DNA of 12,053 bases from a virus (taxonomy: Duplodnaviria > Heunggongvirae > Uroviricota > Caudoviricetes), in IMG/VR virus record IMGVR_UViG_2850808358_000011, one strand, 5' to 3'. Positions 8,639-10,619 of the stretch are shown one piece after another. The notes beneath the pieces were generated by a model that saw only the letters and a list, made by a program, of their open reading frames with translations, made no database searches and was not told where the DNA came from. The number at the start of each line of letters is the position of its first letter. Position 1 is the stretch's first letter. Position numbers and translations under genes: made by a program.

Positions 8639-8824
8639 ATGGATATAACTCAGGCAAGCGCCGAACATCAGGTATGTAAAGCACAGTTTGATACGGCCAG
8701 GGCAAAACTCAGTGAACAGGAATCATTAATCACCAATCTGGAAGCGACTATCGAACAGACGAAAGGGGAGCTGGAGTCTCTCGATCGTGACTGGCAGAAC
8801 TCAATCCTGTCTGCGCTGGAGTAA
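8639..8824 (+). CDS. Small coiled-coil-like protein (61 aa), first gene of the capsid module
   Basis: ATG 8639 with RBS AGGAG; heptad-like hydrophobic spacing. Confidence 0.45.
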   Translation: MDITQASAEHQVCKAQFDTARAKLSEQESLITNLEATIEQTKGELESLDRDWQNSILSALE

Positions 8825-8862
8825 AAACGGAATCCTCCGCGAAATTATCTATTCAGGCGGGT

Positions 8863-9348
8863 GTGGCGCGAGAAAATCTTGAGCGTCTGCGGGTATTGCA
8901 TGATGAAGCGCGCATCAGGCTACTGGAGTGTCGTTATAACGCGGCAGAGGCTGGTTGTGCTTACGAAAGCATTGATAATAAGTTGCGGGCAGAGATATTT
9001 GCAAAAGCACTTCCCGAACTGATTAACGAGCTGACCCCTGTTCTGTTATTGATTCGTGGTTTATGTGAGCTGCTTGGCCAGCCGCTGTATAACGCAGAAA
9101 AGAAAATATGCGAAACACTGAAAGCGGCAGATACTGCTGAAAGTGTCGGGATGATTCGCGGCCGGATTAACGATACCGAAAGCGACACCTCCAGCCCGCT
9201 GCGTTATTGCCCGGAGAAACTCCCGGATTCAGTAAGCTGCGCAATCAGGAGCGCCCCTTCACCTGTACAATGGAGCGCGGCGCGACAGAATCCAGAAAAA
9301 ATGCGCGACCTTGCGGAGGGCAGAGAACTCTGCCGGGGGTGGCAGTAA
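8863..9348 (+). CDS. Hypothetical protein (161 aa), translationally coupled to the capsid gene; possibly scaffold-related
   Basis: GTG start 8863; stop TAA 9346-9348 overlaps ATG 9348 (TAATG); its frame is open from 8791, overlapping the end of the previous ORF. Confidence 0.45.
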   Translation: MARENLERLRVLHDEARIRLLECRYNAAEAGCAYESIDNKLRAEIFAKALPELINELTPVLLLIRGLCELLGQPLYNAEKKICETLKAADTAESVGMIRGRINDTESDTSSPLRYCPEKLPDSVSCAIRSAPSPVQWSAARQNPEKMRDLAEGRELCRGWQ

Positions 9349-10619
9349 TGAGCGGTCTGAATACTCCACATTTGCACGGCGCTGATATAGTGAGCCGACT
9401 CAGGGGATTAATGTCCCGGAATCGCCTGAAAGCAAACACAGCAAGCATAAGCGATGAGACGCGTCGCGCGCTGGACAATGAATATCAAAAACTGGAGCGT
9501 GAGCTTGAGCTTCACACCCTGCATACTGCAAGCGGTGGGGGTAATAACGACGGCATTGAGCGTTATAATTGCACTGCTGATTCTGTTGTATCACAACGAA
9601 ATCAACAGTCTCAGATGGTTTTCAATTGCGCTATCGAGTCGATAACCGGAAAGCATCCGAAGGATTTGCGCTTTTCCGGTGATACTGCGCGCTATTCGTC
9701 AGAAGTTGAACCTGTTCCTCGCCAGAGTGCAACGCTTGCCAGTGGATGGCAGGCAAATTTCCTTGCTGAAATAACTCCCGTGCCTGTTACGGATATATCA
9801 GGTCGGGTTGTGCTGGTAGACGCTTCGGGGCCGTTGGCACGTACATCGCCACCTCACGAGCGCCGTTCGCCACTACAGGCGCATTCACTGGTTTCAAGGG
9901 GCTACCGCTGCGAGCAGGTTAATTTTGATTTTGCGTTGAACTACGACAATGCCGATGCTCACGCATCCGCAAACGGCCTTGAAGGAAGTGCGCGGGCCGC
10001 TTTTGAACGCCGGAAATGGCTGGATTTAATTCAGATTGGTTTTAACGGCACACATTATGCCGCCGAATCTGACCCTGAAACATATCCGGGGCGTGACGAT
10101 TGCGGCGTGGGTTGGTTGCAGAAGTTTCGAAATGAAGCGGCGGGAAGGGTTATCAGCGGCCTTTCTGTTTCATCACCGAAAAGTAATACACGCGGTACAC
10201 ACCATACGATAGATGCGCTTGTTCTGGATGCCTGGCAATCCATGATTGATGAACAGTGGCAGGAAGGCATTGTGGCCGTATGCAGTCACAATACGCTGGT
10301 CCGTAAACAATGGCCTTTGATAAACCGTCTTGATCCATCGCAGATGAATCAGGAAATTTTGCTTAACGAGGGAATCATTAAAAATCCCGTTCTGGGGAAT
10401 CTCCCGGCTGTGACCGTTCCATTTTTCCCGGACAATGCTGTATTGATCACACCTCTTGCCAATCTGTGTCTGTACTGGCAGCGTGGTTCCGTTCGTGGCC
10501 TGGTAAAAAACGAGCCTCAGTATAATCGCCTCGCGTTCTATGAGTCCTGTAACCTTGACTGGGTGGTGGGGCAATATGAGGCAGGGTGCTTACTGGATGG
10601 GATTGACTGGAAAGAATAG
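9348..10619 (+). CDS. P2 gpN-family major capsid protein homolog (HK97 fold), with an N-terminal extension
   Basis: 423 aa from ATG 9348; motifs CEQVNFDF, GFNG, VGWLQKFRNEA, IDALVLDA, GNLPAVTVPFFPDNAVLITPLANL and a C-terminal FYESCNLDWVVGQYEAGCL match my recollection of P2 gpN (CDQINFDF, VGWLQKYRNEA, LDALVMDA, GNLPAVRVPYFP, NYESMNIDYVVEDYAAGCL). Confidence 0.75.
   Translation: MSGLNTPHLHGADIVSRLRGLMSRNRLKANTASISDETRRALDNEYQKLERELELHTLHTASGGGNNDGIERYNCTADSVVSQRNQQSQMVFNCAIESITGKHPKDLRFSGDTARYSSEVEPVPRQSATLASGWQANFLAEITPVPVTDISGRVVLVDASGPLARTSPPHERRSPLQAHSLVSRGYRCEQVNFDFALNYDNADAHASANGLEGSARAAFERRKWLDLIQIGFNGTHYAAESDPETYPGRDDCGVGWLQKFRNEAAGRVISGLSVSSPKSNTRGTHHTIDALVLDAWQSMIDEQWQEGIVAVCSHNTLVRKQWPLINRLDPSQMNQEILLNEGIIKNPVLGNLPAVTVPFFPDNAVLITPLANLCLYWQRGSVRGLVKNEPQYNRLAFYESCNLDWVVGQYEAGCLLDGIDWKE

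Follow-up and report, generated by a model that had tools for sequence, protein, structure and literature searches.

Satellites are known to reshape capsids built from helper protein, as exemplified by P4 Sid, SaPI CpmAB and PLE TcaP, to add a capsid homolog of their own, as SaPIbov5 does with Ccm, or to encode the whole head, as found for the cf-PICI. A 2023 survey described the cf-PICI as the only satellites known to hijack just part of the virion (PMC10085698), and the core set of P4-like satellites has been defined as integrase, psu, delta, sid, alpha, alpA and epsilon (PMC8628076). Here we analyze an Escherichia coli island located between gcd and hpt, about 12.3-12.5 kb in length, nearly all of which is held in IMG/VR virus record IMGVR_UViG_2850808358_000011 (12,053 bases, hereafter the window). 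The island belongs to the P4 family of satellites rather than representing a decayed P2 prophage, and toward its right end carries a gene for a homolog of the P2-family major capsid protein (9348-10619), immediately preceded by a gene that likely encodes a distant relative of Sid (8639-9348). The interpretation we favor, and hold to be reasonably probable, is that of a P4-family satellite of P88-like phages, with a late operon that supplies both the shell protein and an external size-determining cage and a helper that supplies the rest.

The island shares with P4 an integrase of the P4 type (adjoining the window on its left, as seen in the best-annotated relative, locus L001, NZ_CP103974, which served as our reference for gene order and indel comparison), AlpA, the C4/isrK RNA of the CI type, an alpha primase, an Ogr/Delta activator, a late operon with a putative member of the Sid family, a cos of the helper type and a length of about 12 kb. 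It differs from P4 in having its own capsid gene and in being without Psu (no window open reading frame (ORF) matched the Psu family phrog_6366), in having a single 60-aa Ogr domain as activator rather than the 166-aa P4 Delta, and in its gene order, which is cos, ogr, small gene, sid-like and capsid at the island end compared to sid-delta-psu in P4. Further differences are a cos and late promoter of the kind found in P88-like phages (Xuanwuvirus, Gemsvirus), not of the P2 kind, and a second small integrase in the E. coli and Klebsiella members. For epsilon, the small ORFs of the window at 2125-3160 gave no PHROG match.

SaPIbov5 resembles the island in being a cos-type satellite that carries a diverged HK97-fold capsid homolog of the helper family, extended at the N-terminus, and in lacking genes for portal, terminase and tail. 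However, the host, capsid lineage and satellite family are unrelated, SaPIbov5 has no external cage, and the pentamer role of Ccm was established by experiment, whereas the island is described from its genes. The cf-PICI (for example, EcCIEDL933) likewise encode their own major capsid protein, together with all other genes for head formation and packaging (protease, portal, head-tail adaptor and connector, TerS and TerL), and steal tails alone; in contrast, the island has only the capsid and putative cage genes and would have to borrow portal, protease and terminase. Classification of the island as a cf-PICI was rejected given the absence of its own portal, protease, adaptor/connector and terminase from the window and from related islands. 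In a literature search of incomplete coverage, we found neither a P4-like satellite described as having a capsid gene nor any account of satellites that use P88-like phages, and capsid homologs are not mentioned in the survey papers on P4-like satellites.

The capsid homolog and its conserved module

The 423-aa protein encoded by the intact gene at 9348-10619 (plus strand) had been assigned to the P2 gpN family in a sequence-only reading of the window, and this assignment was borne out. The protein matched Pfam PF05125 (Phage_cap_P2) with an E-value of 7e-72 (242.7 bits, cutoff 27; protein residues 133-419 on profile positions 39-327 of 327), the phrog_70 'major head protein' family with an E-value of 3e-76, and P2 gpN (PDB 7JW1, chain A) with an E-value of 1e-54 (query residues 110-419 on gpN 24-340). 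For a structure predicted by AlphaFold2 (AF2) from 37 aligned sequences (predicted local distance difference test, pLDDT, 74), the best Foldseek match again was 7jw1 gpN (E 4e-26), followed by the phiRSA1 capsid (7oz4) and other HK97-fold capsids. Membership of PF05125 is seen in the profile match above the curated threshold and in the HK97-type fold across the whole body; the gene is located outside of a phage head operon, with the Sid-like gene as its upstream neighbor and a terminator and MazEF downstream.

The satellite protein has the same fold as P2 gpN and the P88 capsid and can be aligned with them across the gpN body, but is only 34-35% identical to either (P88 and P2 share 42%) and differs at both ends. 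Met1 of gpN aligns at about residue 80, leaving an N-terminal extension of ~80 residues, and the last 15 residues of gpN are absent. An extension had been noted previously and is present, though its length relative to gpN Met1 is about 80 residues and not the ~60 first given. As modeled, the N-terminus forms a confident helical hairpin (helices 11-29 and 36-61) followed by a disordered linker (about 61-83). This linker is the most variable part of the satellite capsid protein, and in three E. coli proteins (P0009, P0010 and P0011; locus L007, 10001-11425) it is expanded by low-complexity repeats (SS.HSE.GEFS...PLAS.ART), with total lengths of 451-497 aa. The possibility that the extension is a fused gpO scaffolding domain was dropped, as the gpO scaffold/protease proteins of P2 and P88 showed no similarity to it (hhalign probability 0.1%). 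Compared to gpN, the A-domain region aligned to the 'sir loop', the site of Sid binding, is shortened by 3-7 residues and contains a GLSV motif specific to the clade. The shortened loop and the motif are consistent with co-adaptation of the satellite capsid to a cage of its own.

The closest relatives of the capsid protein (266-914 bits, 41-51% identity, 341-497 aa) are found in Escherichia, Salmonella, Klebsiella, Erwinia, Pectobacterium and Symbiopectobacterium, whereas true phage capsid proteins score about 200 bits with at most 39% identity. In a neighbor-joining tree, the satellite proteins were monophyletic in 100/100 bootstraps. This separate, satellite-only clade and the low identity to the P88 and P2 capsids argue for old residence of the gene in satellites.

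We fetched nine islands (L001, L002, L003, L005, L007, L015, L016, L018 and L019), corresponding to the contexts of seven capsid relatives, the second E. coli site and L001. All nine, distributed over five genera (Escherichia, Salmonella, Klebsiella, Erwinia and Pectobacterium), have the same module of Ogr/Delta gene, small gene, Sid-like gene (~240 aa) and capsid homolog at the end of a P4-like island with a P4-type integrase, AlpA and alpha primase. The pairing of primase, Ogr-like and capsid genes, raised as a question in the sequence-only reading, therefore holds for every fetched island. Portal, protease, terminase and tail genes were found in none of these islands, nor were any matched among the window ORFs from the left end to hpt, in agreement with the sequence-only reading as to portal, terminase and tail genes. 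Homologs of O (scaffold/protease) or M (small terminase) also were absent from the window and the nine islands.

Reading frames were intact for 11/11 capsid genes and 10/10 Sid-like genes examined, with ratios of nonsynonymous to synonymous substitution rates (dN/dS) of 0.12-0.20 and 0.10-0.20, respectively, and both genes are under purifying selection. Over eight islands, the identities of the capsid and Sid-like proteins co-vary strongly (r = 0.95), compared to r = 0.33-0.36 for either protein against the primase, which comes in two very different types; simple linkage could yield the same pattern.

These features bear on whether the capsid gene is merely a leftover N gene in a decayed P2-like prophage, the main alternative when the locus was first read. 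In line with such decay, several window genes are frameshifted, and the PGAP label of the capsid gene in L001 is 'P2 family phage major capsid protein.' However, no O, M, P or Q remnants were detected, the neighboring genes are P4-type, and the identical architecture recurs in five genera at different chromosomal sites. The monophyly of the satellite capsids, their distance from any phage capsid, the low dN/dS and the lack of any indel in the window capsid gene relative to L001 likewise speak against a remnant. We consider a prophage remnant extremely improbable, and the preference for a satellite over a truncated P2 late operon was well placed.

Relation of the upstream gene to P4 Sid

Two small proteins, of 61 aa (8639-8824) and 161 aa (8863-9348), had been read upstream of the capsid gene. 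These ORFs instead are the halves of one gene of 236 aa when intact (8639..9348, plus strand), interrupted in the window by loss of a single nucleotide near 8820. L001 has the unbroken gene, and the Sid-like/capsid gene pair gave matches of 1982 nt in 56/57 E. coli genomes for the 1981-nt window query. Its stop codon overlaps the capsid start (TAATG at 9346-9350), so that the two genes are translationally coupled, as the earlier reading had noted for the 161-aa ORF.

The family to which this protein belongs is small and diverged. A word-indexed protein search returned near-identical E. coli sequences only, and Pfam gave coiled-coil noise only; the family surfaced through an exhaustive HMMER search, which recovered just 18 cluster representatives among 1.84 billion, nearly all of about 240 aa. 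The proteins match phrog_6165, which is the P4 Sid family (P4 Sid itself scores 6e-116 over its whole length). All four of the first-tested island proteins matched this profile (E 4.6e-5 to 7e-3, one spanning profile positions 4-236 of 242), as did 6/13 representatives of the family (best E 1.9e-6). Direct comparison of the family with P4 Sid by hhalign gave a probability of 69.5% (E 4e-5); no match was observed between the family profile and P4 Psu.

The predicted structure of the Sid-like protein (AF2, pLDDT 93) is a long helical hairpin (helices 3-58 and 65-146) followed by short helices. Upon searching 350,542 PDB chains with Foldseek, P4 Sid (7jw1_E) ranked first (242 aligned columns, probability 0.99, template-modeling (TM) score 0.47, E 0.05) and P4 Psu (3rx6) ranked second. 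P4 Sid is elongated, with residues 11-137 forming a trimerizing stem and C-terminal elements binding gpN hexamers (PMC7552001). The model has the Sid/Psu-type architecture of an elongated helical hairpin stem and a C-terminal helical region within about 240 aa, and the lengths are similar (236-242 aa for the Sid-like proteins, 244 for Sid). Given the convergence of weak signals from the PHROG profile, hhalign and the fold search, we suggest that the upstream gene likely encodes a distant member of the Sid family. The contrast first drawn with P4, in which the element would have a capsid homolog where P4 uses Sid, is not upheld, as the element appears to have both a Sid-like gene and a capsid gene.

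Candidate late promoter, predicted cos site and island layout

A candidate activator-dependent late promoter is located about 93 nt upstream of the Sid-like ATG and consists of an Ogr-box-like element, TGT-N12-AGA, followed by ACAAAA (8546..8563, plus strand). A T[GC]T-N12-A[CG]A box together with ACAACAAA was present at the homologous position, about 90-120 nt upstream of the Sid-like start, in 5/5 islands compared, and the box region is closely similar to the P88 head-operon promoter upstream of the head protease gene (TCTGGCCGTTTTCTTACAACAAAAGC). For comparison, two TGT-N12-ACA boxes are present in P4 Psid. A strict search for TGT-N12-ACA gave a sole, unrelated match at 2862, and the relaxed box at the conserved position was used. 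The region upstream of the Sid-like gene gave no match to the sigma-70 promoter consensus. A terminator-like hairpin with a T-rich tail (10642..10659, plus strand), 23 nt past the capsid stop codon, probably marks the end of the Sid-like/capsid operon. The lack of a sigma-70 promoter and the presence of the hairpin fit an activator-dependent late operon.

The Ogr/Delta-type zinc-finger late-gene activator (8008..8190, plus strand; 60 aa), already recognized in the sequence-only reading, matched PF04606 with an E-value of 1e-10 and was found in all related islands. Downstream is a small divergent gene (8241..8513, minus strand) with a weak ribbon-helix-helix/CopG-like signal (marginal family matches, E 0.02-0.2), and some gene occupies this position in every island examined. 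GTAATAC/GTATTAC motifs were noted at 7553, 7915, 8438, 8529-8570, 8582 and 8622, with a dyad, CGTAATAC-N14-GTATTACG, among these repeats in the divergent region that separates the small gene from the Sid-like gene. The repeats possibly are operators for the small ribbon-helix-helix-like protein.

A non-coding block upstream of ogr, at about 7618-7790 (plus strand), is conserved in the E. coli, Klebsiella and Salmonella islands and shows 72-80% identity over about 170 nt to a non-coding region of P88-like Peduoviridae (Xuanwuvirus P88, Gemsvirus 500465-2 and others). In P88, this cos-like region begins to the 3´ side of the portal gene, at a distance of ~300 nt, and cos has the corresponding position in P2. 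The conservation among islands and the similarity to P88-like phages point to a cos-type packaging site. While the exact P2/P4 cos 19-mer, allowing up to 3 mismatches, had no match in the window, the P4/P2 cohesive end GGCGAGGCGGGGAAAGCAC aligns in register with GGTGACGGGGGAACAGC(A/C)C. The predicted 19-nt cohesive end, GGTGACGGGGGAACAGCAC (7745-7763), recurs unchanged in the phages P88 and 500465-2 and in the islands of Salmonella and Erwinia.

Based on the shared cos block, the helper probably is a P88-like phage of the Peduoviridae. With regard to the P2-like helper proposed from the sequence, a P88-like phage is a likelier candidate than P2 itself. The P88-type cos block was detected in 1,145/5,426 complete E. 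coli genomes (about 21%) and P88-like portal/terminase DNA in 1,162; potential helpers for this satellite family are common in E. coli. By raw strain counts, the block also is enriched in genomes with the island, as at least one further P88-type cos block was found in 39/56 island-bearing genomes compared to about 21% of all genomes, and the extra block was confirmed as belonging to a P88-like prophage in two genomes with an intact island, FDAARGOS_1299 (NZ_CP069978; island near 2.795 Mb, prophage near 0.361 Mb) and O141:H4 P13-6 (NZ_CP080223). The P88 genome is 35.8 kb, and the ratio of island to helper (about 12.5 kb to 35.8 kb) is the same as that of P4 to P2, leading to the expectation of a T=4-type head. 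A scan of IMG/VR for packaged copies gave four close matches, all provirus predictions from isolate genomes and uninformative on packaging.

At least 80% of the window was found in 42/5,426 complete E. coli genomes. A 24-nt direct repeat (GTGTATCAAT..GTGTATCAATAT) is present at both island ends: the right-hand attachment-site copy, GTGTATCAATCGGTGTATCAATAT, forms the island boundary before hpt (window 11432..11455, plus strand), and a near-identical copy is located left of the L001 integrase. The same island also is inserted at tRNA-Arg (L015, NZ_CP122938, 1478673-1490955), with a different P4-type integrase, and its presence at two sites with different integrases argues for recent mobility. 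The L015 island directly adjoins an IntS/P22-like prophage region, and strain ETEC1734 has two copies of the Sid-like/capsid pair.

In L001, the left part of the island contains the P4-type integrase, a 346-aa hypothetical protein, an AlpA-like regulator and an Icd-like/repressor region. The middle consists of several small ORFs, an 889-aa toprim primase, a second integrase of 333 aa and ~1.1 kb of non-coding DNA, and the right part comprises the Ogr/Delta zinc-finger gene, the opposite-strand small gene, the 236-aa hypothetical gene, the 423-aa capsid gene and MazF/MazE, followed by hpt. In the window, the AlpA-like excisionase/regulator is encoded at 1112..1489 (plus strand; phrog_2790, 6.5e-30). 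The region of the P4 CI-type immunity RNA, with isrK and C4 antisense RNA genes, is at 1778..1985 (plus strand; Rfam RF01695, 74.7 bits with a gathering score of 45, and RF01394, 52.1 bits with a gathering score of 50) and is accompanied by an a1/b1 target-like sequence, as in the P4 CI-type RNA immunity system. The P4 alpha-type primase/helicase (3157..5876, plus strand; phrog_1139, 2e-252 plus 4e-34), intact in L001, appears in the window as two ORFs, 3157-3519 and 3579-5876, owing to the loss of one nucleotide near 3511.

The second, small tyrosine recombinase of 333 aa (5879..6880, plus strand; PF24624 Int_N, 1e-28, and PF00589 Phage_integrase, 6e-19) starts 3 nt past the primase stop codon. 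The E. coli and Klebsiella islands have this gene, and those of Salmonella, Erwinia and Pectobacterium do not; HicAB or AIPR cargo fills the slot in Salmonella and Pectobacterium. The recombinase may act in dimer resolution or as a second integration system. Downstream is an iteron cluster (7127..7449) with 13 copies of GGTTACA flanked by a 54-nt inverted repeat (7127-7180 and 7396-7449); the whole window has 15 copies, in both orientations, compared to 1.2 expected. The cluster probably is either a replication origin for the alpha-type primase or a set of sites for the adjacent small integrase. Other P4-related genes were noted in relatives, namely an epsilon-type 'Derepression' domain (PF25738) in the Erwinia and Pectobacterium islands and DUF5375, the family of P4 orf106, in the Erwinia island.

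Indels between the window and L001 are almost all single bases, mostly in homopolymer runs. Four genes are broken by 1-nt indels: those for the 346-aa hypothetical protein (492), the primase (3511), the Sid-like protein (8820) and MazF (10806). These are either sequencing errors or early decay, and the pattern suggests sequencing error. An ACATGC hexamer repeat at 2667, within a small ORF (2573-2791), differs in copy number between the window and L001, by two units.

The MazF/MazE toxin-antitoxin genes (10663..11254, minus strand; mazF frameshifted at about 10806) are cargo of a defense type, as are the HicAB, AIPR and DUF4238 genes of relatives. Given this cargo, and the frequency with which satellites disturb helper assembly, the capsid homolog might be imagined to serve interference only, as a dominant-negative decoy that poisons helper heads outside of any transducing particle. 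However, the gene is not in a variable cargo slot, but in a fixed late operon with the Sid-like gene, a helper-type promoter and cos in five genera, and its complete HK97-type body is conserved at full length, which a simple poison would not need. A role in interference alone therefore seems improbable, and we return to the favored interpretation of a satellite that supplies a shell protein and a cage.

Particle assembly and the range of capsid strategies

Under this interpretation, the satellite's own Ogr/Delta protein, or that of the helper, would turn on the late operon when a P88-like helper is active. The satellite capsid protein would form all or part of the shell, and the Sid-like protein would act as an external cage fixing a small, P4-like head suited to about 12 kb of DNA. 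The ~80-residue N-terminal extension might serve as a built-in delta-like scaffolding domain that is later cut off by the helper protease. The helper would provide portal, protease, terminase, head completion, tail and lysis functions, with its terminase recognizing the satellite's P88-type cos at 7745-7763. Judging from the sequences, formation of P4-sized heads by the Sid-like cage and satellite capsid is the most likely outcome.

In a variant of this scheme, the satellite capsid protein would co-assemble with the helper capsid protein, for example in pentamers or at cage-binding hexamer positions, and so redirect assembly to the small size. There is a precedent in Ccm, a capsid homolog 24% identical to the helper protein, which occupies the pentamers of T=4 SaPIbov5 procapsids and forms no capsids alone (PMC8569155). 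Like SaPIbov5, the island carries the cos of its helper and is without protease, scaffold and portal genes of its own. Unlike SaPIbov5, it encodes a putative Sid-type cage, and in P4 the cage alone sets the size (PMC7552001). In addition, the tight co-variation of the capsid and Sid-like proteins suggests contact between these two proteins and not with the helper protein, and the shortened, GLSV-containing A-domain region departs from gpN at the very site of Sid binding. We regard mixed shells as a serious but rather unlikely variant, and continue to favor a satellite-encoded shell protein working with a satellite-encoded cage.

Several points weigh against the favored scheme. The need for an additional capsid gene is left unexplained, given that in P4 Sid alone resizes helper capsids. 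Each single measure of Sid homology is weak (the best E-value, 1.9e-6, is that of one member, and the Foldseek match had E 0.05 and TM 0.47). In profile searches of PDB sequences, Sid was the top match with a narrower Sid-like alignment (A2; E 0.02) and fell to E 2.9 with a wider one (A5), a disagreement that makes the sequence evidence by itself marginal. As for the proposed scaffolding role, the extension has no similarity to the gpO scaffold, and its hairpin is absent from P0018, of Pectobacterium, and smaller in P0016, of Salmonella, indicating that the hairpin is not essential everywhere. The Ogr box in the window is imperfect, with AGA for ACA. The window copy, with four indel-broken genes including those for the Sid-like protein and primase, may be inactive unless these are sequencing errors. 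The 39/56 co-occurrence with P88-type cos blocks ignores strain relatedness, 2/39 second sites were checked, and a few of the extra copies may be second satellites. Finally, the island is known here from its genes, from which we infer particles, transfer and expression.

A P4-family lineage that combines a capsid gene with a Sid-type cage, and has spread through five or more enterobacterial genera, would be intermediate among satellites that reshape, supplement or replace the helper capsid. More speculatively, the island may represent a third grade of capsid autonomy, in which a matched shell and Sid-type cage form small heads independently of the helper capsid protein while portal, protease, terminase and tail are stolen from P88-like phages; we put this forward as tentative. 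If this is true, the satellite would be immune to 'sir'-type capsid escape mutations of the helper and would have a wider helper range, and Sid and Psu perhaps were first partners of a satellite-borne capsid whose gene was later lost by P4.

The module would provide a natural system for the co-evolution of an external cage and a shell protein, and P88-like prophages, found in about 21% of complete E. coli genomes, would be a helper group so far unstudied for satellites. With no Psu or epsilon match and only a distant Sid homolog, the island may be missed or under-classed when satellites are detected by models of the P4 core set. Given the toxin-antitoxin and defense cargo of these islands, their movement has a bearing on gene flow among pathogenic E. 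coli, such as porcine strains of enterotoxigenic E. coli (ETEC) and Shiga toxin-producing E. coli (STEC).

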